This document shows positions 6,670-63,701 of a stretch of 64,000 nt of DNA, piece by piece. Below the pieces are notes generated by a model that did not search any database, was not told the origin of the DNA, and worked only from the letters and a program-made list of their open reading frames with translations. The translations under genes and the position numbers were made by a program. Within the stretch, counting starts at the first letter, position 1, and each line of letters opens with the position of its first letter. Source of the stretch: Thermoprotei archaeon (GTDB taxonomy: Archaea; Thermoproteota; Thermoprotei; Gearchaeales; WAQG01); assembly GCA_038881895.1 (NCBI GenBank), contig JAVZOV010000004.1, positions 34,521-98,520 of the forward strand, written 5' to 3'.

Positions 6670-7435
6670 TTAATGCATTATTTATAGGATCATCCACTAA
6701 ACCAGACGATATTACCACCTTACGCACCCCAGCATTAACAGCTTCAGACCCCATAAGAAGTTTTCTATTCATGCCAGGACTAATCTTAGAGGCCATTTCT
6801 ATTGCTTCATTAGCAGAAAAGTGCTTCACTATTTTATTGTTAAAAATCACACCATCAACGTCAGTAAGAAAAATCAGCTTTTCAACCTTACCGCTTATAG
6901 CTATAACTTTTGCTACTTGATCACCATCAACGTTAAGAGGAACACGTTCAGAAACATCTATAGCCACTGGAGAGATCACAACAACATCAACAAGACTAAG
7001 TAAAGCATTAAGTAAACTGAAATTCACATCATTGATCTTCCCAGTATAGCCACCATCGATGGCTCGCTTACGCCCACGCTCATCAATAATTATAACCTTT
7101 TTCTTTCGAACAGCAGTGAAAAGAGGACCATCAACACCAGTAACACCTATAACCTTTTTACCAAAACCAATTAACATTGACGTAATCATTTTGTTTATTA
7201 AACTCATCACCATAACATAAACATCTAACTCCTCACGAGACGTATAACGACTCACAACACCTTCAGGTGACATAATAAATTTAGGTTCAATACTCATCCT
7301 TTTACTATACTCAGTCACTTGATCTCCACCACCATGAACAAGAATTAGTTTTCCCTGATAAGATACAATACTCTTAACCAACTTATCCAAATTATTTTTA
7401 ATAACCCTACCGCCAACTTTCACAACAATAACCAT
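6644..7435 (-). CDS. lysZ: Amino-acid kinase family protein, LysZ/ArgB type (LysW-gamma-aminoadipate kinase)
   Basis: VVKVGG...VHGGG amino-acid kinase N-terminus; operon context. Confidence 0.8.
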   Translation of the reverse strand: MVIVVKVGGRVIKNNLDKLVKSIVSYQGKLILVHGGGDQVTEYSKRMSIEPKFIMSPEGVVSRYTSREELDVYVMVMSLINKMITSMLIGFGKKVIGVTGVDGPLFTAVRKKKVIIIDERGRKRAIDGGYTGKINDVNFSLLNALLSLVDVVVISPVAIDVSERVPLNVDGDQVAKVIAISGKVEKLIFLTDVDGVIFNNKIVKHFSANEAIEMASKISPGMNRKLLMGSEAVNAGVRKVVISSGLVDDPINNALNDGGTVIE

Positions 7436-8760: not shown

Positions 8761-9012
8761 TGATGAGTCCCAGAAAGCTTAGAGCTTTGCTGGGATGAAT
8801 GGGCAAAGTTTATGATGTTAACCCACTAATTTAAATGTTCCAGATGTGAATGGAAAGAATTTCGTCTGAATTGGAGCGAAAACATAGTCCATAGGATAAT
8901 AAGCTTTATGAGATAGTTGAGTTGTGAGACTCGCAAACCAGCAAATAAAGAAATGAGTGTGAAGTCCATCCTAAACGCTGGGAGTCCCTGCTTTAGCTGT
9001 GGAGAGGTTCGC
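8761..9012. repeat. Interspersed ~240-bp repeat, copy A (near-identical to copy B at 20053-20295)
   Basis: Shares a 5' palindrome (AAAGCTtagAGCTTT) followed by ctgggatgaatgggcaaag, and a 3' core gcaaaccagcaaataaagaaatgagtgtgaagtccatcctaaacgctgg, with copy B. Confidence 0.6.
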
Positions 9013-9310
9013 TACATTGACATTCTCCGTGGCTGAAGCCAGGAGATTCTCGGTTTGTCGTGGGGCCTCCACTCATCCTACCGAGTTCGGGCTGTGCCAA
9101 GGCAGCCCCTGCCATGAGCATATAGCCCATAGCCCGCTCGCTGGAACCCCCCCACCCGTCTTGGATGGGAGCCTTATTCCAGCTTTCGGACGTCCCATCC
9201 ACATCCGAGCGACACGCTCAAGGAGATGGTGGACTTGGATGAATATAAACTTAACGGCGATTCATCTCCACGACTGAAGTCGGAAGCCTTCTCGCCGAAA
9301 GAGTGGTAAC
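9013..9310 (-). pseudogene. tnpB: Decayed tnpB 3'-end remnant. The first ~125 bp is homologous to the 3' end and right end of the intact tnpB at 52797-52921; the rest is GC-rich with no intact ORF
   Basis: 9017-9137 aligns at high identity with 52801-52921, differing mainly in a ~22-nt central segment. The minus-strand frame encodes ...RAMGYMLMAGAALAQPELG, the same C-terminal peptide as the intact TnpB. No TnpB-like upstream reading frame. GC content is far above the flanks. Confidence 0.55.
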
Positions 9311-30691: not shown

Positions 30692-30783
30692 TGGGGCCGG
30701 CCGGATTTGAACCGGCGATCCCCAGGGCCCGAGCCTGGTACTCTAGGTTTTTAGCTTCCTAGACCAAGCTAGACTACGGCCCC
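30692..30783 (-). tRNA. tRNA-Pro (anticodon CGG) with a ~16-nt insertion (probable non-canonical intron) in the D-arm; no encoded CCA
   Basis: Reverse complement folds as acceptor GGGGCCG/CGGCCCC, intact anticodon stem-loop CCAGG-CUCGGGC-CCUGG, T-arm GCCGG-UUCAAAU-CCGGC; the D-arm region is 38 nt instead of ~19. Confidence 0.6.
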
Positions 30784-50740: not shown

Positions 50741-50800
50741 TTTTACCAGAACTCCGACAAGAGAGTTCAGAACTTTAGTTCTGGGATGAATTGCCGAAAG
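50741..50800. repeat. Partial, divergent copy (copy D) of the 5' module of the interspersed repeat: palindrome CAGAACTttAGTTCTG + gggatgaattgccgaaaggtttgatg
   Basis: Same architecture as the 5' ends of copies A and B (palindrome followed by ctgggatgaatgNgcNaaRgtttRtgatg), but the palindrome arms have a different sequence. Confidence 0.4.
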
Positions 50801-52205: not shown

Positions 52206-52754
52206 TTAGAGTACTTGAACCTCCCTGCCCTTTAATTCTTTTTTCTGCTTTTTCATTCTAACTTCTAGGACACCATTATTGTATGTTGCTTTTGTTTCAT
52301 CGGGATTAACTTCGGATGGAAGCTCTACCTTTTTGTAGAATTTATCACCAGCTTTAATCTCTAACTCCTTTTCAGTAGCATGGACCTTGATTTCCTCTTT
52401 CTTTACACCAGGCGTTTCTGCCGTAACTATTATTTCATCGTTTGTTTCATTAATATCAACTAAAGGTTCTCTTTCGATGATGGGTTTTTCACCAATCTTC
52501 TTTGGCACAGTCCCAAATTCTCTAATCGTAGGCTTTCCATCAGGACCAATTGTTATAGAATAACCATATATTATTGGACCAAAACGCTGCTCACCAAAAG
52601 GTCTAGTTCTCATGCGCTCTAAATCTTTGAAAAACTCTCTCTGCATCTCCTCAAAAACTCTATCAAAATACTCCATTAAATCCCAAGGATCAGTAATATC
52701 AAACTCTCTCTTCTTCCTTCTGAATGACATAAATAACCACCCATATAAAAACAT
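52206..52754 (-). CDS. Small heat-shock protein (Hsp20/alpha-crystallin family)
   Basis: Alpha-crystallin domain with the conserved ...ATYNNGVLEV... segment. Confidence 0.8.
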   Translation of the reverse strand: MFLYGWLFMSFRRKKREFDITDPWDLMEYFDRVFEEMQREFFKDLERMRTRPFGEQRFGPIIYGYSITIGPDGKPTIREFGTVPKKIGEKPIIEREPLVDINETNDEIIVTAETPGVKKEEIKVHATEKELEIKAGDKFYKKVELPSEVNPDETKATYNNGVLEVRMKKQKKELKGREVQVL

Positions 52755-52796
52755 TTGAAAGCACTTAATAAAGTTTACTTAAAACAAGACTTTGAA

Positions 52797-52960
52797 AATT
52801 GACATTCTCCGCGGCTGAAGCCGGGAGATTCTCGGTTCCTCAGGCTCAAGCCTTCATCGTACCGAGTTCGGGCTGTGTCAAGGCAGCCCCTGCCATGAGC
52901 ATGTAGCCCATAGCCCGCTTAAGGATGTTCGTTGCTCCATTATAGTCTGCGTTGCATTGG
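52797..52960 (-). ncRNA. Predicted omega-RNA (reRNA) scaffold overlapping the tnpB 3' end and right end
   Basis: Inference from the TnpB family's known architecture; the same ~125-bp segment is what survives in the remnant at 9013-9137. Extent not determinable from sequence alone. Confidence 0.35.
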
Positions 52961-53922
52961 ATTCCGCAGTTTTGGCATTTGAAGAGGCCTCCGACTCGAA
53001 GCCCCCTATGCCCGCATTTATGGCACAGCTTTGAAGTGTTTCTCTCGCTTATCTTAACAACTTTGATTCCGCGCCATCTCGCCTTATACTCTATGAATTG
53101 GCTTAGCCTATGGTATGGGAATCCGTTGTTGAGCTTTCTTTTGAAAGTCCTACCTCTGCCGTTTCGTCTTATGCCCTTGAGTTTTCCAAGAATTATCATG
53201 GAGTCGTTCGCCAAAGCTTCGTTGACTATGGCTCTGCTAATCTTATGCAGGATGTCGCTAACAACTCTTCTCTCTTTACGCCCAATCTTCTTTATGGTTC
53301 TGTAGGCCCTCTTTAAAGCTAAAGACCTTCTAAGGTAGAAGTAGTGCCCCTTAACCCTTCTAAGCTCCCTCCCATAGAACTTCGGTCTCGGATTGGTTGA
53401 GTTGACTGTTGTGGCTATCCAGCGTATCCCCATATCTATAGCTAAAGTCGACTTAGGATTTCTCTCCTCGACTTCTTTTTCAACAGTTATGTGGACGAAC
53501 CACTCATTACCTTTCTTTACGATTTTTGCCTCTCTGCAAATCATGTCATCAGTTATTGGTTCATGGGTCTTTATAGGGACGTTTATTCCGCCTCTAACCC
53601 CATAAATTGGAATCTTGAGCCAATAAGGCGTCAGCTTGGTGTCCGCTCTGTACATGTCCCTTCTAAGGATTAGCGGGTATTCCTTGTTAGGCTTAACATT
53701 TCCAAGCCTCTTTAGAAGTCTGTCAGCCTGTTGCTTTGTAGCGGAATAAAGTGGAACAGACTTGTCTCCATGCAAATAGCGTTGCCAATTCTCGTATTCC
53801 CTTCTAAGAAGCTCTTCCTTGCCTTTGCGAAGTTCAAGAACCTTTGCCTTAATGGTTTTCTTAGCCTTCATGAGCGACTCGCCCATAGAAAAATTAACTG
53901 ACAAGTATTTAAACGCATTCAT
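52846..53922 (-). CDS. tnpB: TnpB (IS200/IS605 OrfB; RuvC-like RNA-guided nuclease family)
   Basis: RuvC-I LAIDMGIRW, RuvC-II Glu region, zinc finger CHKCGHRG...CQNCGIQC, RuvC-III NADYNGATNI; GC content clearly above flanking genes. An internal Met (MKAKK...) may be the true start. Confidence 0.85.
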   Translation of the reverse strand: MNAFKYLSVNFSMGESLMKAKKTIKAKVLELRKGKEELLRREYENWQRYLHGDKSVPLYSATKQQADRLLKRLGNVKPNKEYPLILRRDMYRADTKLTPYWLKIPIYGVRGGINVPIKTHEPITDDMICREAKIVKKGNEWFVHITVEKEVEERNPKSTLAIDMGIRWIATTVNSTNPRPKFYGRELRRVKGHYFYLRRSLALKRAYRTIKKIGRKERRVVSDILHKISRAIVNEALANDSMIILGKLKGIRRNGRGRTFKRKLNNGFPYHRLSQFIEYKARWRGIKVVKISERNTSKLCHKCGHRGLRVGGLFKCQNCGIQCNADYNGATNILKRAMGYMLMAGAALTQPELGTMKA

Positions 53923-54185
53923 CCCATGATTAAAATCATGGGCTTTCTGCTACGTCTCTGTAAAATTACGTAAGAGAGCGTCCCTTTACGAAGGGTTTAA
54001 CGCAGAAGAGAGAGATTAAGTATAGATATGGAATCCATACTTAGTCCAGAACCATTAATAGGTTTTAAGACATCTCATTTAAAATCTCGTCCATTCATTC
54101 CAGGACTAAAGTTCTAAGTTTTTTGGACGTCCAATAGTATAAATAAATTTTTATTAAAGAAAAGAAACATAAAAATGTGGTACTT

Positions 54186-54797
54186 ATGAAGATTGTTCTT
54201 GTAGCAGTCCCAGGCGGTGGAAAAACAACAATAATGAACATTGTTAAGAGTTTAGTTCCCGATGTAAAAATAGTTAATTATGGTGATGTGATGCTTGAAA
54301 TTGCTAAAGAGAGACGTGGGATAATGGATCGCGATATGATGCGAAAAATTTTAAGCGTGAATGAGTATAGAGAACTTCAATTAGATGCAGCTAAAAAAAT
54401 TGGCGAAATCAAAGGGGATGTAATAATCGATACGCATGTTACCATAAAAATGAAAGGCGGGTATTACCCGGGTTTACCATTTGATGTAGTAAGATTGATG
54501 AGACCTGACATGATAGTGCTTTTAGAATTCGATCCTCATGATGTTATTGAAAGACGTATGAAAGATATTACGTCATCATCGCAAAAAAGAGCAGGCCGTG
54601 ATATAGAAACGCCTGAAGACATAGAATTACAACAAGAAATGAATAAATACTTTGCAGTTGCAGCAGCTAATGCTGCAGAATGCATAGTAAAAATAATAAA
54701 CTTACGATTTAGACAATCTCGTCCATTTGAACAAGCCGAAAAAGCTGCCCGAATAATTGCCGAAATAATATCTACCGAAAAATCATCTAGATACTAA
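54186..54797 (+). CDS. adkA: Archaeal-type adenylate kinase
   Basis: P-loop VPGGGKTT and overall similarity to archaeal adenylate kinases (IVNYGDVMLE..., IIDTH..., GGYYPGLP); TATA-like tataaata about 45 nt upstream of the ATG at 54186. Confidence 0.75.
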   Translation: MKIVLVAVPGGGKTTIMNIVKSLVPDVKIVNYGDVMLEIAKERRGIMDRDMMRKILSVNEYRELQLDAAKKIGEIKGDVIIDTHVTIKMKGGYYPGLPFDVVRLMRPDMIVLLEFDPHDVIERRMKDITSSSQKRAGRDIETPEDIELQQEMNKYFAVAAANAAECIVKIINLRFRQSRPFEQAEKAARIIAEIISTEKSSRY

Positions 54798-56369
54798 TTT
54801 TTTAAAATATAGCAATATCAATAAAATAATAGACACTAAAACTATGTAAGGTAACAAAACAACATACATATAAATTATTAATGCCACACTTGCATAAAAT
54901 CCAGCCAAAAGCAATCTACCTTTCTCTAAATTATCCCTAGCCATATTAATGAATATCTCAGTAATCCATCTAATAGATTGCATCCACCATGGTAAAGATT
55001 CAGCATTGTGAGCAACGTTTTCTATGAATGTTCTTAAGCTTAACACATCATTACGCTGTAGGGGAGTAAATCCCCATTTTATAAACAAAGGTGTCACATC
55101 AGTATTCCATGCATCATTTAAAGCTTCAATAATATCTTGAGTCGATGAAACTCTTCTTCCTGACAACACTCTAAAGAATTTAGAATAACCATCTAAACCA
55201 CCATACAGTTCACTCAACTTTTCAAAAATAGCATAGGAAGCAGCATAATACACAAGAATATCGCTCACCTGTTCGCTTGGTTTCCAATTCTCTATAAATC
55301 CATAACCACTTAAATTCCTGGCTAAATTATTAAGCAACCTAATTCTATTAATACTAGCAGGTAAATCCTTTATTAGCGATGTGCTAATGAACTCAGCAAG
55401 CCCTTCATGAACCCAGAGCAGTTCATACGGGTTAATATTCAATTTAAAAAGAAATCTATGTACCAATTCATGAAGTATTATGAGTGAAATCTCACCATCA
55501 ACACCACGATAATAAATTAAATTCACATGAATATCACCAACATTACCCCCAGAGTAAGGAACATAACCACCAACACTAAAATCACTCTGCGATTCAGGAA
55601 CATAAAATGTAATCACAGTTTCCTCGAGAGAAAAACCAAAAAGCTTTGTCATATTATTATAACGAGTATAAACTTGATCCAATAAATCACGCGCTAAGGA
55701 ATAATAACGCTCAGGTGTTCTAATTACTAAATCACCCTTTGAAATATTGACAAAACTTTCATAATTATTCACGGTCAAGAATAAACTAACACGATTAAAA
55801 CTACTACCCTCAAATATAGCTCTTAAACCATTCTCATCGATTATTATTTTAGCCGGAGATGGAGAAACACTTCTTATCTCCCTAAAACTTACGTTTCTTA
55901 TATCCAAAACATAAGTTCTCCTCAACCACAATGAATGCCCAAGTAAAGGTGAAAAATAGGCAGCGTTAGGCTCAACGATCAATAGCGTATAAGGATGCTT
56001 ATAAGTTATAGAAAGGGAAACGGGACCATGATAATTAATCGTCAAATTAACATAAAATGGATTCTCCTCATTGTTTAAATATAAAACGTGCCTTTCAACA
56101 TTTAATGGTAAATTATTAGACGATATGATATTCCCATTCCAATTCTTGGGCACTATTAACCACAATGAATTAGGGGCACTCTTATAAATTGTTATGTTTA
56201 TATATACCATAGAAGTAGTTAAATTCGCACCATCAATATAATTATAATATTCTATAGACCCATAATATTGCTGAGCCCAAACAACATCACTAACGTTCAT
56301 TAACATTACTATATAAGTATTAATGACCAAAATAAACATGAAAATAATCGATAAACATTGCTTCTTCAT
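54783..56369 (-). CDS. Putative membrane-anchored extracellular gluzincin-type metallopeptidase
   Basis: HELVH followed ~18 residues later by a Glu in WVHEGLAEF (HExxH...E); N-terminal signal, many N-glycosylation sequons, C-terminal TM anchor. Confidence 0.45.
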   Translation of the reverse strand: MKKQCLSIIFMFILVINTYIVMLMNVSDVVWAQQYYGSIEYYNYIDGANLTTSMVYINITIYKSAPNSLWLIVPKNWNGNIISSNNLPLNVERHVLYLNNEENPFYVNLTINYHGPVSLSITYKHPYTLLIVEPNAAYFSPLLGHSLWLRRTYVLDIRNVSFREIRSVSPSPAKIIIDENGLRAIFEGSSFNRVSLFLTVNNYESFVNISKGDLVIRTPERYYSLARDLLDQVYTRYNNMTKLFGFSLEETVITFYVPESQSDFSVGGYVPYSGGNVGDIHVNLIYYRGVDGEISLIILHELVHRFLFKLNINPYELLWVHEGLAEFISTSLIKDLPASINRIRLLNNLARNLSGYGFIENWKPSEQVSDILVYYAASYAIFEKLSELYGGLDGYSKFFRVLSGRRVSSTQDIIEALNDAWNTDVTPLFIKWGFTPLQRNDVLSLRTFIENVAHNAESLPWWMQSIRWITEIFINMARDNLEKGRLLLAGFYASVALIIYMYVVLLPYIVLVSIILLILLYFKKLVSR

Positions 56370-56692
56370 ACATCTAAATTTTTTATTAACTCATATATTA
56401 AGCTATTCAAATCTATACTCTGCCAACGAATCATTTAAACTGCATTATTCCGCTCATTTATTGACATCTTATTCAAAATAACTTAAATAATACTATAACC
56501 TAACATTCAAGTATTTATGTTTTACGATTGAACGCATCAACACTTCAAGGCAAGGTGTTTAAAGTAAGTAGTCCTGTGAATTGTCGTAATGATAATATAA
56601 ATATATTAAAACCGCATGACAATCAGATTATAATAAATTTAAAATATGCTCAAAATAAATAGAAGCAAAAAAGGATAAATACTTTAAATCTT

Positions 56693-57742
56693 GTGAAAAA
56701 ATTGGTGAGAATTTTGGTTGTAAGAGTGGGTGTTGTAGGTTATGGAACTATAGGAAAGCGCGTTGCTGATGCTGTTCTTCGTCAAAATGATATGAAACTC
56801 GTAGGTATCGTTGTGAGAAGAGCAGATTGGAGGACAATGTTGGCTATTGAGCGTGGGATTAATATTTACACATCTAATGATGTAGATTCAAAGAGTTTTT
56901 CAGAAAAAAAGATTACGCCAGCAGGTAACATGGAAGACTTGCTTAATTCCGTTGATGTAATTGTAGATGCGACGCCAGATGGTGTTGGTGAGAGGAATAA
57001 ACCTCTCTATGAGAAACATAATGTAAAGGCGGTGTTTGAAGGAGGAGAAGATCATGAACTTACTGGGGTTAGTTTTGTTGCTACGCGTAATTATGCTGAA
57101 AGTGTTGGAAAACAATTTACTAGGGTTGTGAGTTGTAATACGACTGCAATTAGCAGAGTAGTCGGAGGAATACATGAAAAAATTGGTTTAAAAAAGGCTA
57201 GGGTGGCAATATATAGGCGTGCAGCTGATCCATGGGAATCTCATTTAAAAGGTGTGATGAATACTGTGGTTCCTGAATTAAAAATACCATCACACCATGG
57301 CCCTGATGTACAGACTGTAGTACATGATTTAGACATTGTTACTATAGCTGCAAAGGGTAGTCATAATCTATTTCATTTGCATGTGGGATTTCTTGAAGCG
57401 CAAAATCAGATTACAAGGAATGAAGTAATTAGAGTATTAGAAGAAGAACCTAGAGTTGTTTTAGTTAGAGGGGCGGATGGCATTGTAGCATTAAATTCTA
57501 TCTTCGAGCTTGGTAGAGATCTAGGACGACCTAGAGGTGATCTTTATGAAATACCCGTATGGGAAGAGAGCGTGAAAGTAAATGGGAACGAGATCTATCT
57601 GATATGGGCCACGCCCAATGAGAGTAATGTTATACCAGATAATATAGATGCTATTAGAGCCTTAACTATGATTGAAAAGGATGGTAAAAAATCTGTGGAA
57701 AAGACAGATAAGGCATTAAATATTCTGAAAAAGTTGTATTGA
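56693..57742 (+). CDS. gap: Glyceraldehyde-3-phosphate dehydrogenase, archaeal type
   Basis: NAD(P)-binding GVVGYGTIGKRVA and active-site SCNTT; start codon uncertain (several in-frame GTG/TTG). Confidence 0.8.
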   Translation: MKKLVRILVVRVGVVGYGTIGKRVADAVLRQNDMKLVGIVVRRADWRTMLAIERGINIYTSNDVDSKSFSEKKITPAGNMEDLLNSVDVIVDATPDGVGERNKPLYEKHNVKAVFEGGEDHELTGVSFVATRNYAESVGKQFTRVVSCNTTAISRVVGGIHEKIGLKKARVAIYRRAADPWESHLKGVMNTVVPELKIPSHHGPDVQTVVHDLDIVTIAAKGSHNLFHLHVGFLEAQNQITRNEVIRVLEEEPRVVLVRGADGIVALNSIFELGRDLGRPRGDLYEIPVWEESVKVNGNEIYLIWATPNESNVIPDNIDAIRALTMIEKDGKKSVEKTDKALNILKKLY

Positions 57743-57745
57743 GAG

Positions 57746-59050
57746 TTGATTAAAATGGCTGGAGCATTAGGTGGTAGGGTACCTGAAGAGATAGAAAGCG
57801 CAATGTTAAAAATAGATATTGGTTTTAAGACAATGGACGATATTGATTTTGAAGATAAAGTAGTGTTGCTTCGTACCGACATGAATTTACCGCTAAATCC
57901 TAAGACTAGCATGCCGATTGATCTTACTCGCATGAAGGTACTTGCAGAAACAACATTAAAAGAACTATTAGTTAGAGGAGCAAGAGTTGCTATACTCACA
58001 CACCAAGGTAGGCCTGGTGATCCTGAATTCACAACAACAGATTTACATGCAAAATTATTAGCAAAAATGTTAAAAACACGAGTACACTATGTACCAGACC
58101 TCTATGGTCCACTGGCAATAGAGGCAATGAAAAAATTAAGAAAAGGCGAATATAGAATAGTAATGCTTGAGAACGTAAGGACCGACCCCGATGAAATGAT
58201 CAAAAGACCCCCCGAAGAGCAAGCTAAAACTAAACAAGTTCAAACATTATCAATGTTAGCGGACATATATGTTAATGATGCTTTTGCAGCATGCCACAGA
58301 AGTAACGTATCATTAACAGGATATCCAGTAGTGATGCCAGCTGTAGGAGGTAGAGTACTCGAATGGGAAATGAGAGCACTTACTTGGGTACTTCGCTATA
58401 GTGAAGCACCTAGAATTTTTATTTTAGGTGGTGCAAAATTAGAGGATGCAACAGCCATAACTGACCATGTCCTCTCTACTAAGAAAGCCGATTTTGTTGC
58501 TATGGCAGGTCTAATCGCCAACCTTTTCTTAGCAGCAAAAGGAGTTGATCTAGGAGAAATAAATATGAAATTCTTAGAACGTAAAGGAGGATTACTTCTC
58601 ATGGAAGATGTGAAAAAAGTACTCGAAAAATACAAAGACTCCATAATACTACCTACAGATGTAGCTGTAGAAACTGGTAATGGAATACGAGCCGATATTC
58701 CTATAGGATTACTTCCAATCAACTCCCCTATAAAAGATATTGGCATGTTAACCGCTGAAACTCTTGAACAAATAATTTTCAAAAGCAGAACTGTAGTAAT
58801 TAGCGGTCCAGCCGGAGTCTATGAGGAACCCGCGTTTATTTATGCTACAAAAAGAATATTCAAAGCAGCAGTCGAATCAAATGCTTTCTCCGTAGTGGGA
58901 GGAGGGCACACAGTCGCTGCATTGAACATGATGGGATTAGCAAGCAAATTTAGTCATGTCAGCACTGGTGGTGGAGCATTGATAGAAATGTTAATGGAAA
59001 GACCACTACCCGGTGTAGAAGCTTTAAAATTAGGCGCAAAAAATATTTAA
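57746..59050 (+). CDS. pgk: Phosphoglycerate kinase
   Basis: PGK N-terminal pattern (...DKVVLLRTDMNLP...) and C-terminal GGGA motif region; conserved gap-pgk arrangement; true start may be an internal Met. Confidence 0.8.
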   Translation: MIKMAGALGGRVPEEIESAMLKIDIGFKTMDDIDFEDKVVLLRTDMNLPLNPKTSMPIDLTRMKVLAETTLKELLVRGARVAILTHQGRPGDPEFTTTDLHAKLLAKMLKTRVHYVPDLYGPLAIEAMKKLRKGEYRIVMLENVRTDPDEMIKRPPEEQAKTKQVQTLSMLADIYVNDAFAACHRSNVSLTGYPVVMPAVGGRVLEWEMRALTWVLRYSEAPRIFILGGAKLEDATAITDHVLSTKKADFVAMAGLIANLFLAAKGVDLGEINMKFLERKGGLLLMEDVKKVLEKYKDSIILPTDVAVETGNGIRADIPIGLLPINSPIKDIGMLTAETLEQIIFKSRTVVISGPAGVYEEPAFIYATKRIFKAAVESNAFSVVGGGHTVAALNMMGLASKFSHVSTGGGALIEMLMERPLPGVEALKLGAKNI

Positions 59051-59090
59051 TTTTTATTAATTTTAAGAATATTATAAAAACTATTAATAA

Positions 59091-60068
59091 TTATCTATTT
59101 AATTGTTTAGACCACTGTAATAATGTTTTCACTCGTCTTACTGGATGCGGGTGTGTGCTGAGAAATTCTGCAAGCCTTTCAGAAAATGTTAACTCTCTCC
59201 TAGCTAAGTCATAAACTATTACCTCATCTCCACTAATCGTCATTGGTTTCGCAGCTTCAGGATCCGAAATAAGCAGTGCTCTAAACTTTGATGAGGAACT
59301 TATCGCATCTGGATTTCTCTCTCTTATTTCTGACGTAGAGTTACTTATTTTAACTAAAGCTACTGCTAACTTCATTGCACCACCATCGACAACTGTTGCA
59401 CCGTTATAATCTGCGTACGTCTCACGTTGTCTACTAAAAGCAAGTAACAGTAAGTTTAGTATAAAGTACACTATAAATCCTATGATGCCAATCAACACTA
59501 AAATAAAACCAGAATTTCCATTATTCCTTCTGCCACCACTAATTGATGAAAACCATCCTGAATAATACAAGGCTTGTGAAATCGCATACACTATAGCTGG
59601 AAGAACACTAAGCAAAGTTATAACTTGCACATCATGATGCCTTAAATGTCCAACCTCATGACCTATCACAGCTTCAAGTTCATCAGGTTTTAGCACTTTT
59701 AAAATACCCTTTGTCACTGCTATTCTTGGACCCGTAAGCCAACTACCATAAGCGAATGCATTAGGCACTGGTATATCAGCTATCATAAGTTTTGGAATCT
59801 TCCTTAACTTACTTCTCTGTGCAACTCTCTCGACTACATCATAAAGCCACTTATATGACTCATCAGCAGGTTTAACCTTATAACTCCATTCTATTACATA
59901 AGGACCAATGAGCCATTCAATAAAAACCCACAGTGCTACTAGTATTGCTAAGGCTAACGGTGTCAATCCACCTATTAACGCTAGAATTGGCATCAGAAAG
60001 AGTGCTGTAACACCTACGATAACTAAGAACGTGATAGTCATAATGATCCACAGTCTCCATGGCATCAT
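59091..60068 (-). CDS. htpX: M48-family zinc metalloprotease (HtpX-like)
   Basis: HEVGH zinc motif (IGHEVGHLRHHD) with flanking TM helices. Confidence 0.75.
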   Translation of the reverse strand: MMPWRLWIIMTITFLVIVGVTALFLMPILALIGGLTPLALAILVALWVFIEWLIGPYVIEWSYKVKPADESYKWLYDVVERVAQRSKLRKIPKLMIADIPVPNAFAYGSWLTGPRIAVTKGILKVLKPDELEAVIGHEVGHLRHHDVQVITLLSVLPAIVYAISQALYYSGWFSSISGGRRNNGNSGFILVLIGIIGFIVYFILNLLLLAFSRQRETYADYNGATVVDGGAMKLAVALVKISNSTSEIRERNPDAISSSSKFRALLISDPEAAKPMTISGDEVIVYDLARRELTFSERLAEFLSTHPHPVRRVKTLLQWSKQLNR

Positions 60069-60252
60069 TTATACTCACCTAGCATATAGTAAAACAAAAC
60101 TTTCTTATAAATCTAGTTCACACACAGTCTATCTTTTTCTCTACTTTTTAAGAGAATTATTCAGAATCACTCACAAATCACCATTACCTGCCGTGGTCAA
60201 CAGTTTTGGAATAGATAGGTTTAAATATTTGTTCAACTCTATTAACTCTTTG

Positions 60253-60438
60253 ATGGAAGAAGAACTGCTTAGACCAAAGGATGTTGCAAAGATATTCAAC
60301 ATCTCAGTTAAAACGCTCTGGAAGTGGCAGAGGAAAGGCATTATTAGAGCAGTTAAACTTCCAACTGGCAAGCTCCGCTACCCGAGGAGCGAAGTTGAGA
60401 GGCTATGGAAGCAGTTAAAAGCTACAGGATCCCAATAG
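60253..60438 (+). CDS. Small MerR/excisionase-type HTH protein (61 aa), resembling only the DNA-binding N-terminus of an IS607-type TnpA
   Basis: MEEELLRPKDVAKIFNISVKTLWKWQRKGIIRAVKLPTGKLRYPRSEVERLW; overlaps the tnpB start. The listed 176-aa ORF is a spurious upstream extension overlapping htpX. Confidence 0.55.
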   Translation: MEEELLRPKDVAKIFNISVKTLWKWQRKGIIRAVKLPTGKLRYPRSEVERLWKQLKATGSQ

Positions 60439-61592
60439 AGGCTCCAAAAGATTTAATCGAAGAATACTTCAAAGCTAAGCGGAAGGCTTTAGACGCAATA
60501 TTCTCACACGTTAAAATTTCCAAGAAGGCTCACCTTAACTTGAAAGCTGAGGATAGGAGAGAGCTTAGAGATGAACTGCTGAAAGACTGGAGGTTTTCAA
60601 AGCATTACGTTGATTCAGCAATGAACTCCGTTATCGGATTGGTTAAGGGCTGGATAACACTATATAACAAGGGGAAAGCTGAAGGTAAGCCTGAGATAAC
60701 TAAAAAAACCGTTTACATTAAGAGCACGCTCTTCAGCTTTAGAAATGGTATACTGAGGATAAGCGTAGAGCCTAGTAAGCGGTATCTTGAGGTTGACTTA
60801 AGAAAGTGTTCGTGGATTCCGAGAGACTTTGATAAAGTCGGTGGACTACTTATGACTGAAAGTGAGCTGATAATTACAGTTAAGAAGAGGGTTGAGCCCA
60901 AAGCTGATAAGTGGGCTTCCTTCGATGTGAACTTAACGAACGTGACGGCGTTCATAGGTGGCGAGATCAAGCGCTATGACTTAAGAGAGCTCTACCACAT
61001 TCACAGAGTTTATGAGGTTAAAAGACAGAGGATACAAAAGTTATCTAAGATTAAGCCTCTAACCTCAAAGAGACTATTAGAGAAGTACTCTAAGCGTGAG
61101 GAGAATAGGGCTAAAGACTTCATGCATAAGTTAACCACGCAGGTTGCGAGGGAGCTCAAGGAGAAGGACTGCGGAGCGATACTTGAAAACCTGAAAGGTA
61201 TAAAGGGGCGAATTCTTAATGGCTCAAGGAAAAATAACAGAAAGCTCTCAAAGTGGAACGCAAGAACATTCCAACTCATGCTCGAATACAAGCTGAAATG
61301 GCTTAACCTACCAACAAAATACGTTAGCCCAGCCAACTCATCTAAAACTTGCCCAGCCTGCTCAGGAAGCATGGCTTCCTATCTGGGCAGGATAATGAAG
61401 TGCGAAGAATGCGGGTTAACGATGGATAGGGATGTTGTAGCGGTGTTGAACCTTCAGATGCGGGGAGAAGGGTTCACCCAGAGAGCCCTCAATGAAATAA
61501 TTGAGGGGGAAGGGTTAAGTAGGAATAAAAGCAACAATTCACTATGCATTCCTACTCAACTCAGAACCCATTACATAAAGCTAACCGTTTGA
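60405..61592 (+). CDS. tnpB: TnpB (second, distinct family member; RuvC-like nuclease with zinc finger)
   Basis: RuvC-I ASFDVNLTNV, RuvC-II Glu (AILENLKG), zinc finger CPACSGS...CEECG, RuvC-III DRDVVAVLNL; GC-rich relative to flanks. Confidence 0.85.
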   Translation: MEAVKSYRIPIEAPKDLIEEYFKAKRKALDAIFSHVKISKKAHLNLKAEDRRELRDELLKDWRFSKHYVDSAMNSVIGLVKGWITLYNKGKAEGKPEITKKTVYIKSTLFSFRNGILRISVEPSKRYLEVDLRKCSWIPRDFDKVGGLLMTESELIITVKKRVEPKADKWASFDVNLTNVTAFIGGEIKRYDLRELYHIHRVYEVKRQRIQKLSKIKPLTSKRLLEKYSKREENRAKDFMHKLTTQVARELKEKDCGAILENLKGIKGRILNGSRKNNRKLSKWNARTFQLMLEYKLKWLNLPTKYVSPANSSKTCPACSGSMASYLGRIMKCEECGLTMDRDVVAVLNLQMRGEGFTQRALNEIIEGEGLSRNKSNNSLCIPTQLRTHYIKLTV

Positions 61593-61724
61593 AAACTGCT
61601 GAAGAACCCTTAAAGAGTGAATGTTGTCCGTTGTCAGATAATATGGAATCAGTATCGTTACATTAAAAAGTTAAACCATAATAAATCAAAAACACACCAT
61701 CGGTTTTTAATAAAATACTTTGTG

Positions 61725-63701
61725 TTATTTGGATATTATTTGACCGGTATCTTTGTGTATTTTATATCCGGATAAACGTTTTTGAAGGGCATCAGCAAAT
61801 TCTTGCGATTTTAATACGTTGACAAATTTCTTTACTGAATCTTTTTCTAAGCGATCTATTGGTATTAGAAAATCATAAAATTCTTCTCCAATAGGTATAA
61901 AATCTAAATCATAAGCGTCAGCAACACTCTTGATTGCAACACCTACATCAGCTCGGCCTTGAGCAATAGCAGCCGCAACACCAGAATGTGTTTTTGCCTC
62001 AGTATAATACCCGCGTATCATGCTTATTAGTTCTTGAAAACTAATATTTTTTGTAAATGCTAATTCTCTTAATTTCATATCTATTAATGCGCGTGTGCCA
62101 GAACCTTTATTCCTATTTATAAATCTTATATTGGGTTTTAATAAATCTTCGAAACTTTTTATATTTAACGGATTACCTTTCTCAACGATAAATCCTTGCA
62201 GTCGTACATATCCTCTAATTAACACAGCTTTACCCCTTAATCCATATGTATCCATGAATGGTATATTGTACTCATTCGTCTGTTCATCAAATAAATGTGT
62301 GCCTGCAATATCAGCCTCTCCTCTTTTTACTGCAAGCCAGCCACCTACAGACCCAATGTTTATAACTTTTATGTATTCAAAGTCGCCCAGCTCAGTAATT
62401 AAATCTACACCTGGACAGTGGCTCCCTATGATTATGAGATCGGCTGGCCTAAAATATCGTGAGATTAATTTTACTTCCACACTCTCATTTTCCTCTAGAA
62501 ATTCATGAGACTCGGGTATCTCTATAAACCCGTCTGCAAATGCTAAAACAGTAGCTGAACCTGAACTAGCAAGCAATGGGTATGCTTTATAACGATCCTG
62601 AACTTGGACTATATTTACTGGCAGATACTCTCTCTTACCTTTACCGGTTTGAACTTTAAAAGCCATTTCTGCTTGGATTTTTGCTTCGCTCTGTTTTGGT
62701 GAAAGTCCAATAATCTTAGCAAGTATAGGTCGAACAAAGACTAGAAATGCTACCATTGAAGATAGAGGAAATCCAGGCAATCCAAATAATAATTTATTAT
62801 TAACAACAGCAGCTATTGTTGGTTTTCCAGGCTTAATCTTGAGACCGTGAACTATTAAACCTGGTTTACCTAAATTATTGAAAACCCTATATATAGTGTC
62901 TCTAATACCAGCTGATGTACCACCCGAAGTAATTACTACATCATAGTTCTCGTATGCTCTTGAAATAACATCCTCAATTAGCTTAGGATCATCCGGTAAT
63001 ACACCTAGATAACTTGGTTGTGCGCCCATTTCAGCAACCATGCTGCTTAACGAGAAACCATTAACATCGTATACTTTGGCTGGCCCCAATTTGGAACCCG
63101 GCATCACAATTTCGTCGCCAGTAGAGATAATAGCGATACGTGGTTTCACATACACCCTGACCATGTGTATGCCTAAGCCTGCTAATACTGCTATTTCTCT
63201 TGCGTTAAGTAGTGTACCTTTTCTCAACGCTCTTTCTCCAATCCTAATATCGGAGCCAGTTTGTGCAACGTTCTCACCTGGATGAACAGATTTATAAATA
63301 AGAACTCTTTTTTCATTAATTTTTTTGGTATGTTCAACCATAACTACAGCATCAGCACCTCTAGGTAAAGGAGCGCCAGTATCTATCTCTACAGCCTCAT
63401 TAAGATTTACCTCAACACCTGGTATTTTTCCAACAATTGAAGTACCTACAATTTTTAACTCAACAGGCTTATCTTCATCGGCTTCAAAAGTACTACGAGA
63501 ATCTACAGCATAACCATCGACCTCTGAACGATCAAAAGGAGGTAAATCAATTGTTGCATAAACATTTTCTGCTAATACACGTCCTAGTGCGCGTTCTAAT
63601 GGTATTATTTCTACTCCAAGGGGTTTAAGCCCGCCAAGAGCATTTTCAACAGCTTGGATCGCTTCTTCAACAGTTAAAAGCTTATGAAATATTATTGCCA
63701 T
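61725..63701 (-). CDS. moeA: Molybdopterin molybdotransferase MoeA fused to a C-terminal PBP-like domain
   Basis: MoeA N-terminal and MPT-binding domains, plus a ~250-aa C-terminal domain homologous to the C-terminus of the ModE-like protein at 13514-14593. Confidence 0.75.
   Translation of the reverse strand: MAIIFHKLLTVEEAIQAVENALGGLKPLGVEIIPLERALGRVLAENVYATIDLPPFDRSEVDGYAVDSRSTFEADEDKPVELKIVGTSIVGKIPGVEVNLNEAVEIDTGAPLPRGADAVVMVEHTKKINEKRVLIYKSVHPGENVAQTGSDIRIGERALRKGTLLNAREIAVLAGLGIHMVRVYVKPRIAIISTGDEIVMPGSKLGPAKVYDVNGFSLSSMVAEMGAQPSYLGVLPDDPKLIEDVISRAYENYDVVITSGGTSAGIRDTIYRVFNNLGKPGLIVHGLKIKPGKPTIAAVVNNKLLFGLPGFPLSSMVAFLVFVRPILAKIIGLSPKQSEAKIQAEMAFKVQTGKGKREYLPVNIVQVQDRYKAYPLLASSGSATVLAFADGFIEIPESHEFLEENESVEVKLISRYFRPADLIIIGSHCPGVDLITELGDFEYIKVINIGSVGGWLAVKRGEADIAGTHLFDEQTNEYNIPFMDTYGLRGKAVLIRGYVRLQGFIVEKGNPLNIKSFEDLLKPNIRFINRNKGSGTRALIDMKLRELAFTKNISFQELISMIRGYYTEAKTHSGVAAAIAQGRADVGVAIKSVADAYDLDFIPIGEEFYDFLIPIDRLEKDSVKKFVNVLKSQEFADALQKRLSGYKIHKDTGQIISK

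Follow-up and report, generated by a model that had tools for sequence, protein, structure and literature searches.

In the 64,000-nt stretch of a Thermoprotei archaeon genome analyzed here (hereafter the window), the minus strand carries an intact-looking insertion sequence of 1,161 bp (positions 52799-53959), the ends of which were set by comparison with independent copies. Its sequence makes it very likely that the element is a non-autonomous member of the IS200/IS605 family, belonging to the known TnpB-only (IS1341) group. This degree of confidence covers the best explanation as a whole, from the element type, horizontal acquisition, mobility and expression to the guide RNA and the nuclease. 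A preceding annotation of the same DNA (hereafter the original prediction) had also proposed a TnpB-only element of IS200/IS605 type, in agreement with the intact open reading frame (ORF), the Pfam and NCBIfam matches and the low dN/dS values reported below. The boundaries, the end motifs, the covariation of the hairpins and of the RNA, the conservation of residues, the purifying selection and the protein fold are observations of the present analysis.

Boundaries and ends of the element

A scan of one genome per species, which did not include the window's own genome, yielded 17 loci with close relatives of tnpB, sharing 64-83% amino-acid identity. The comparison of ends comprised 17 copies, namely 15 of these genome loci, the window element and a second, 289-bp element of the window; 16 of them carry tnpB. 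The tetranucleotide TTAC sits exactly at the start of homology in all 17 copies (15/15 loci spanning the 5′ end and both window elements). At the 13 loci spanning the 3′ end, the DNA homology stops at one point, where every copy reads ...TGTCAA and then diverges. The flanks are unrelated in each copy, and the right flank does not repeat the left one, that is, there is no target-site duplication. Moreover, the neighboring genes differ at every locus, and the differing flanks of the 15 genome loci and at least 120 metagenome contigs represent independent insertions. Three related copies (L001, L009 and L011) have premature stops in tnpB (124, 25 and 139 codons, respectively), with ends and 3′ RNA module intact.

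Compared to these boundaries, the right end of the original prediction (52797) is 2 nt off, since TGTCAA, ending at position 52799, is the last sequence shared with all related copies, and its left end (54113) overshoots by 154 bp, for homology begins only after TTAC at 53960-53963, leaving 53959 as the last position of the element. This TTAC (minus strand) lies in the flank, outside the element, and represents the target tetranucleotide, the left cleavage site C_L and the inferred transposon-associated motif (TAM). The segment 53964-54139 matches none of the related elements and, given a motif in it that is repeated before other host genes, is best read from its sequence as host intergenic promoter DNA upstream of a kinase-like gene (AAA_17). 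The motif, TCATTCCAGGACTAAAG, extends to ~25 nt and is found in intergenic DNA upstream of genes at 54095-54111 (plus strand), 50773-50789 (minus) and 6769-6785 (plus), three copies in the window against 0.23 expected; a similar sequence lies at about 12517-12535 of L028, the contig of the closest relative. It may be a host regulatory site.

The element also stands out in composition. Its GC content is 45.5%, compared to 35.1% for the window, and ranks at the top of 629 windows of 1,161 bp, confirming the marked excess over neighboring genes that had been pointed out before. There is no transposase gene within the element: the distance from TTAC to the start codon is 88 nt here and 87-111 nt in the other copies. 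As no copy has space for a transposase gene, the family is TnpB-only and would have to rely on TnpA supplied in trans. A tblastn search with an IS608 TnpA query, which gives a weak negative, found no similarity to Y1 TnpA either within the 64 kb of the window or next to the related loci. Look-ups of the exact protein sequences of the two closest TnpB homologues, and of Hsp20 and the kinase-like protein with two alternative starts for each, returned no match.

Alignments of the copies define a left end (LE) at 53872-53959 (minus strand), which reads, on the tnpB strand, TTAC, a 17-nt linker ending in AAAG, a hairpin, GATGAAT, a TATA box, a ~21-nt spacer, a palindrome and the start codon. The AAAG (G_L; 53943-53946, minus) closes the linker directly 5′ of the left hairpin. 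The subterminal hairpin itself (53923-53942, minus) has perfect 9-bp arms with a 2-nt spacer; 95.5% of its cells are paired over the 17 copies, and six of eight pairs show compensatory changes. In most copies it is surrounded by an outer stem, TCGACA/TGTCGA, which covaries with TCGGCG/CGCCGA. The perfect inverted repeat that the original prediction had noticed is therefore real and covaries; its placement immediately upstream of the tnpB ATG does not hold, as it is the LE subterminal hairpin, 51 nt upstream of the conserved start. Because this position is upstream of the promoter, the hairpin is taken to act in DNA.

Downstream of the hairpin, the TATA-box-like TTTAAATA (53906-53913, minus) has a TTAAATA-like sequence at the same position in most of the 17 copies and is the putative tnpB promoter element. 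A 13-nt palindrome, GGGCGAgTCGCTC (53872-53884, minus), abuts the start codon. Its core GCGAGTCGC is nearly invariant in all copies, with one position varying in two, and one flanking pair covaries (A-T, or AU, in 10 and G-C in 6). The palindrome falls at about the expected transcription start; translational control and a protein-binding site are both possibilities for its role. For the start codon at 53871, 14 of the 16 copies with tnpB have ATG, one has GTG and one TTG. In contrast, the ATG at 53922, chosen as the tnpB start in the original prediction, falls within the conserved GATGAAT, before the TATA box, and the ATG at 53886 is not conserved among the other copies. Judged from this conservation, the start at 53871 most likely gives a TnpB of 341 residues.

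At the right end (RE), the subterminal hairpin (52807-52827, minus) has 8 bp, a UUCA tetraloop and one bulge, and coincides with helix 5 of the RNA module described below. It is preceded on its 5′ side by GAAT (G_R; 52828-52831, minus) and followed, after a 4-nt spacer, by TCAA (C_R; 52799-52802, minus), the last bases of the element. Altogether, both ends possess covarying subterminal hairpins, and there are no terminal inverted repeats. In IS608, Y1 TnpA binds such hairpins on single-stranded DNA, and guide tetranucleotides recognize the cleavage sites by base pairing (PMC3201880, PMC5934647).

TnpB and the predicted guide RNA

The longest uninterrupted ORF (52846-53922, minus) would encode 358 residues, whereas the tnpB coding sequence from the conserved start (52846-53871, minus) encodes 341 residues plus the stop. 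The protein matches the Pfam families OrfB_IS605 and Cas12f1-like_TNB, and scores 174 bits against the NCBIfam model guided_TnpB (cutoff 100). Among proteins of solved structure, AsCas12f and ISDra2 TnpB are the most similar to it in sequence. An AlphaFold model computed with 30 family members reached a pLDDT of 83 and a pTM of 0.75, and a Foldseek search with it retrieved AsCas12f (TM 0.70), ISDra2 TnpB (8h1j) and mimivirus Fanzor2, with a probability of 1.00. In the predicted model, the TnpB fold is present, with WED, REC and RuvC and the zinc-finger TNB domain. The dN/dS values of tnpB against five other copies (0.06-0.14) indicate that the protein is under purifying selection.

Further analysis of the RuvC active site revealed an unusual arrangement. 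The RuvC-I aspartate D146 (53434-53436, minus) is invariant among 121 family members, and the RuvC-III aspartate D309 (52945-52947, minus) is retained by 115 of 116 sequences. The canonical D-E-D triad is nevertheless incomplete, with the RuvC-II glutamate replaced by Gly229 (53185-53187, minus), which is glycine in all 121 members; the catalytic E324 of AsCas12f aligns with a glycine of the window TnpB within the motif MIILGKLKGI. An alternative glutamate, E276 (53044-53046, minus), is invariant in 119 of 119 ungapped members, follows strand β5 directly in the model and stands exactly six residues before the first CxxC of the zinc finger, whose four cysteines (C283, C286, C299 and C302) are conserved in the family. 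Residues 146-309 match the published Ealt pattern D{P}G-x(120-160)-E-x6-CxxC-x(12-18)-CxxC-x(4-8)-D (PMC10711439). Branches with a rearranged RuvC-II, having glycine in place of the canonical glutamate and a glutamate after β5, have been described (PMC10691335), and for this class the Thermoplasma volcanium TvTnpB and Fanzors show TAM-dependent DNA cleavage without collateral activity (PMC10530073). We assign the window TnpB to the class of rearranged-site TnpBs, with RIIr-5, the archaeal RIIr-6 and RIIr-8 as candidate branches. E261, the glutamate of FIEYKA, was considered as the catalytic residue and dropped in favor of E276, to which the alignment with AsCas12f and the Ealt definition in the literature both point.

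The original prediction had held that all RuvC motifs and the zinc finger are kept and that the enzyme is probably active. The zinc finger, D146 and D309 are indeed retained, but the RuvC-II glutamate is not. The expectation of activity still stands: by analogy with the alternative-glutamate class, TnpB is predicted to be a nuclease that is probably active via its rearranged site.

The last ~127 nt of the element (52799-52925, minus), overlapping the last ~77 nt of the ORF, form a predicted omega-RNA scaffold of five helices, the fourth of which has the stop codon TGA (52846-52848) in its loop. This segment folds with -57.5 kcal/mol (z = -3.9). Over 15 copies, 94.6% of the cells in the helices are paired, compared to 24-44% after shifting the 3′ partners by 1-3 columns, and 17 of 32 pairs show compensatory changes. 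A pattern of helices 3-5 found matches in at least 120 metagenome contigs, from which 79 distinct new sequences were aligned to the covariance model of the first set. In this second set 95.4% of the cells are paired against 24-40% in the slid controls, with compensatory changes at 18 of 32 pairs, figures to be read with the outer half of helix 5 fixed by this alignment, which also somewhat favors the model structure. The RE hairpin sequence of the window element, used as an exact pattern, had no match in the metagenomes scanned. In helix 1, eight of nine pairs occur as several pair types, such as CG 36 and GC 34, or AU 30, UA 19, UG 15 and CG 7. The window scaffold scores 141 bits with the covariance model R1.

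On the tnpB-sense strand, G-U pairs outnumber A-C mismatches by 24 to 13, an excess that mildly favors a sense RNA. The 18 C-terminal residues of TnpB encoded over the RNA are predicted to be disordered in the model. With the RNA overlap, the stop codon in the loop of helix 4 and this disordered C-terminus, the 3′ part of tnpB looks RNA-shaped rather than protein-shaped. Comparison with Rfam gave no family within the element at gathering thresholds. Below its gathering threshold of 50, HgcC (RF00062) matches 52786-52891 over model positions 1-130, with 26.3 bits and an E-value of 2e-4 to 1e-3, which is a resemblance and not membership. For IS1341-type tnpB genes of several archaea, 3′ sense-overlapping transcripts (sotRNAs) have been mapped (Gomes-Filho et al. 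2015, PMC4615843), and an “RE-like tetraloop”, which helix 5 with its UUCA loop matches, was described for these sotRNAs and the HgcC RNA family (PMC4615843). At the level of conserved structure, the covariation supports an omega-RNA-type scaffold in the 3′ module, in line with the omega-RNA that the original prediction had located at the tnpB 3′ end and right end.

According to the TnpB/omega-RNA paradigm, the guide would derive from the flank directly 3′ of TCAA, here the 20-nt TTTTCAAAGTCTTGTTTTAA (52779-52798, minus). As anticipated in the original prediction, this predicted guide falls in the upstream region of the Hsp20 gene, 25-44 nt before the first ATG of the Hsp20 ORF. Its sole match in the window at up to two mismatches is its own flank, which is preceded in situ by TCAA and not by TTAC. 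In the homing model, the TAM of TnpB equals the target site of the transposase, and the vacated donor site is cut (PMC10055086). A flank preceded by TCAA rather than TTAC fits such homing, in which only the vacated donor site, with TTAC joined to the former right flank, would be cut. As to the Hsp20 gene itself, translation probably starts at the ATG at 52730 (minus) and not at the first ATG at 52754, for the L028 relative begins there (MSFRRK...); with this start the right end of the element lies 68 nt upstream of hsp20.

We propose that a Y1 TnpA supplied in trans would move the element as single-stranded DNA, binding the covarying subterminal hairpins. Exactly as in IS608, base pairing would define the cleavage sites, AAAG recognizing TTAC on the left and GAAT recognizing TCAA on the right, and insertion would occur 3′ of TTAC without target duplication. 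The TATA box inside the left end would drive tnpB, and read-through of the right end would yield an omega-RNA consisting of the ~127-nt scaffold and ~16-20 nt of flank. TnpB loaded with this RNA, with D146, the relocated glutamate E276 and D309 in catalysis, might then cut the vacated donor site and trigger the recombinational re-copying of the element. In this scheme we infer transcription, RNA processing, the identity of the TAM, nuclease activity and present-day mobility.

The 289-bp relative and the host genome

The window also harbors a shorter, non-autonomous relative of the element. The original prediction had regarded 9017-9137 as a remnant sharing a conserved segment with the full-length element. 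The shared segment is confirmed, with 87% identity between 52798-52919 and 9016-9138, corresponding to the last 72 nt of the ORF and 47 nt downstream; the term remnant does not apply, for the segment is part of a complete element of 289 bp with its own ends, resembling palindrome-associated transposable elements (PATEs) and miniature inverted-repeat transposable elements (9017-9305, minus). It is flanked by TTAC (9306-9309) and has an LE hairpin (9266-9286) plus outer stem, AAGG where AAAG is expected, the TATA-like TTTATAT, a start-region palindrome without ATG and a terminal TCAA. All five helices of the omega-RNA-type scaffold are found at 9017-9144, with an R1 score of 130 bits, and the predicted guide would lie at 8997-9016.

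Nine metagenomic elements of 264-293 bp (L042, L048, L062, L066, L081, L092, L114, L115 and L131) share the same layout with 69-74% identity and differing flanks. The ~290-bp elements have in common an internal segment of ~75 nt without significant similarity to the full-length element; this segment may stand in for the 5′ portion of the guide-RNA scaffold. It contains a PATE-specific hairpin of 8 bp (9163-9200, minus) that is paired in all 10 sequences and covaries at three positions. By its sequence, 9017-9305 belongs to a propagating non-autonomous lineage and is not a decayed fragment. Keeping ends, promoter region and scaffold, it would depend on both TnpA and TnpB in trans; earlier work has already described non-autonomous elements with omega-RNAs that serve in trans (PMC10055086, PMC4615843).

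The host phosphoglycerate kinase (PGK) shares 95% identity with one assembly, 71% with metagenome-assembled genomes (MAGs) labeled “Thermoproteota archaeon” and ~50% with Bathyarchaeota; there is no Sulfolobales sequence among the best 120 PGK matches. These matches place the host in a low-GC uncultured lineage of Thermoproteota and not in Sulfolobales, and the comparison with Sulfolobales elements recommended in the original prediction was misdirected, as the PGK is nearest to the “Thermoproteota archaeon” MAGs. TnpB itself has its nearest database protein at 95% identity, shares ~77-83% amino-acid (76-78% nucleotide) identity with copies in Korarchaeota (Methanodesulfokora), Nitrososphaeria, Bathyarchaeia and Methanophagales, and 66-73% with Brockarchaeota and more distant copies. 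This similarity across archaeal phyla, together with the GC excess, points to horizontal transfer among thermophilic archaea. L028, with 85% DNA identity, has neither this element nor the second TnpB element of the window, and the absence from its syntenic region suggests a fairly recent insertion. An empty site could not be defined in L028, where synteny is broken and the remaining intergenic DNA has no significant similarity.

The second TnpB element of the window (60254-61592, plus strand) consists of a 61-residue HTH_17/MerR-like ORF (60254-60438) overlapping the start of a 395-residue TnpB (60405-61592). The latter shares 28% identity with the first TnpB and keeps the canonical RuvC-II glutamate (AILENL). 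Some 130 nt of possible RNA or right end follow before the stop codon of a MoeA-like gene. Compared to L028, a 6-kb block between the two elements (54140-60128), with the kinase-like gene at one end, an M48 peptidase at the other and GAPDH and PGK in between, is inverted; in L028 the gene for the M48 peptidase lies next to that for Hsp20, in divergent orientation. The breakpoints (52777-54140 and 60128-61732) coincide with the two unrelated TnpB elements, the left ends of which both face the block. The outgroup contigs L029-L031 did not settle the ancestral arrangement of the block. That breaks or single-strand intermediates at TnpB elements can drive such local rearrangements without homologous insertion-sequence copies is a speculative idea, to which we give little credence. 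Elsewhere in the window, a weak partial tRNA match at 30699-30758 (minus; 31 bits, model positions 7-64) is the only Rfam hit at gathering threshold.

Alternative readings and relation to known systems

Several findings weigh against a mobile, expressed element with an RNA-guided nuclease. No TnpA was found in the element, the window or the locus flanks, and the element is the single full copy within the 64-kb window. The 3′ arm of the LE outer stem is ~7 nt shorter in the window copy, the canonical RuvC-II glutamate is missing from TnpB, and the strand evidence from G-U pairs and A-C mismatches is modest. In addition, the right flank starts with TTTT, which might end archaeal transcription early and shorten the guide.

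The lack of a TnpA in the window and locus flanks, the lone full copy and the shortened outer stem would all suit an immobile fossil, in which the ORF is intact by chance, the left end is damaged, no cognate TnpA exists, and TnpB and the RNA are functionless or decaying. Such decay has counterparts among the related copies, of which L001, L009 and L011 are pseudogenes, and the nearest database protein shares no more than 95% identity. Against this stand the full-length ORF with every invariant family residue present and the intact hairpin, AAAG, TTAC, GAAT and TCAA. The RNA module, at 141 bits, equals that of the best copy, the absence from the syntenic region of the closest relative suggests a fairly recent insertion, and the inspection for TnpA covered just 64 kb of the host genome. 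We therefore regard a fossil as unlikely, while giving it more weight than any other alternative considered here.

The glycine at the canonical RuvC-II position in 121 of 121 members could instead mean a nuclease-dead TnpB acting as a TldR-like RNA-guided DNA-binding regulator, possibly of the adjacent Hsp20 promoter, given that the guide overlaps the Hsp20 upstream region and that tnpB and hsp20 are co-directional. Values of dN/dS alone cannot separate this reading from that of a nuclease. The invariant glutamate at the published Ealt position, with D146 and D309 intact, speaks for catalysis (PMC10711439, PMC10691335, PMC10530073), and the guide-matching flank is preceded in situ by TCAA instead of TTAC. 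The catalytic residues and the ends of TldRs are lost and their association with a target gene is fixed, whereas the present element has complete transposon ends and unrelated neighbors at every locus without a conserved partner gene; a regulator of this type is thus most improbable. Equally improbable, in our view, is that the 3′ structure acts at the DNA level only, as transposase hairpins and not as an RNA scaffold. Helix 5 with GAAT and TCAA does constitute the exact recognition elements of an IS608-type TnpA (PMC5934647), and the LE hairpin covaries too, although it lies upstream of the promoter. However, IS200/IS605 transposases need one subterminal hairpin per end, and here four extra helices covary over ~100 nt into the ORF, with G-U pairs exceeding A-C mismatches. 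The module also resembles the HgcC RNAs, a family first found through its expression, and 3′ sense-overlapping transcripts are known for IS1341-type tnpB in several archaea (PMC4615843).

With a mobile TnpB-only element as the preferred reading, the present analysis adds a well-delimited, compact archaeal TnpB of the rearranged-site type, of 341 residues, with defined ends, TTAC as the inferred TAM and a covariation-backed scaffold of ~127 nt. Enough is defined to test this TnpB directly as a thermophilic miniature candidate for genome editing. One element family and its ~290-bp guide-RNA-bearing parasite are spread over several archaeal phyla and hot environments. The element leaves the current understanding of TnpB biology unchanged.

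In its ends, the element most closely resembles IS608 of Helicobacter pylori. TTAC, AAAG, GAAT and TCAA are identical and equivalently placed (PMC3201880, PMC5934647), and both elements have subterminal hairpins but lack terminal inverted repeats and target duplications. The spacing differs slightly, with 17 versus 19 nt at the left end and 8 versus 10 nt at the right end. Unlike IS608, which carries tnpA and tnpB in Helicobacter, the present element has tnpB only and an archaeal host. Its TnpB lacks the canonical RuvC-II glutamate; the comparison with IS608 covers the ends.

Compared to ISDra2 of Deinococcus radiodurans, the overall fold of TnpB is similar (Foldseek 8h1j), as is the predicted design of the guide system, in which the 3′ end of tnpB and the right end encode the omega-RNA, with a guide from the flank and a TAM equal to the transposase target (PMC10055086). 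ISDra2 TnpB differs in having a canonical D-E-D triad, 408 residues instead of 341, the TAM TTGAT and a tnpA gene in the element. The archaeal IS1341 systems of tnpB, sotRNA, HgcC and PATE (PMC4615843) share with the present element the restriction to TnpB, an RNA module that overlaps the tnpB 3′ end and runs past the stop, a UUCA-tetraloop hairpin of 8 bp near the end, and short LE-RE fusions, the PATEs, that retain the RNA. The two differ in host phyla and protein clade, and the RNA, mapped as a transcript there, is predicted here from sequence. In its active site, the window TnpB is akin to the proteins termed “TnpB2” (TvTnpB, PMC10530073), “Ealt” (PMC10711439) and RIIr (PMC10691335), with glycine at RuvC-II, glutamate six residues before CxxC and a RuvC-I motif of aspartate, a hydrophobic residue and glycine. 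TvTnpB resides in an IS605 element together with TnpA and uses the TAM NTGAC, whereas the element described here carries TnpB alone, with TTAC as its candidate TAM.

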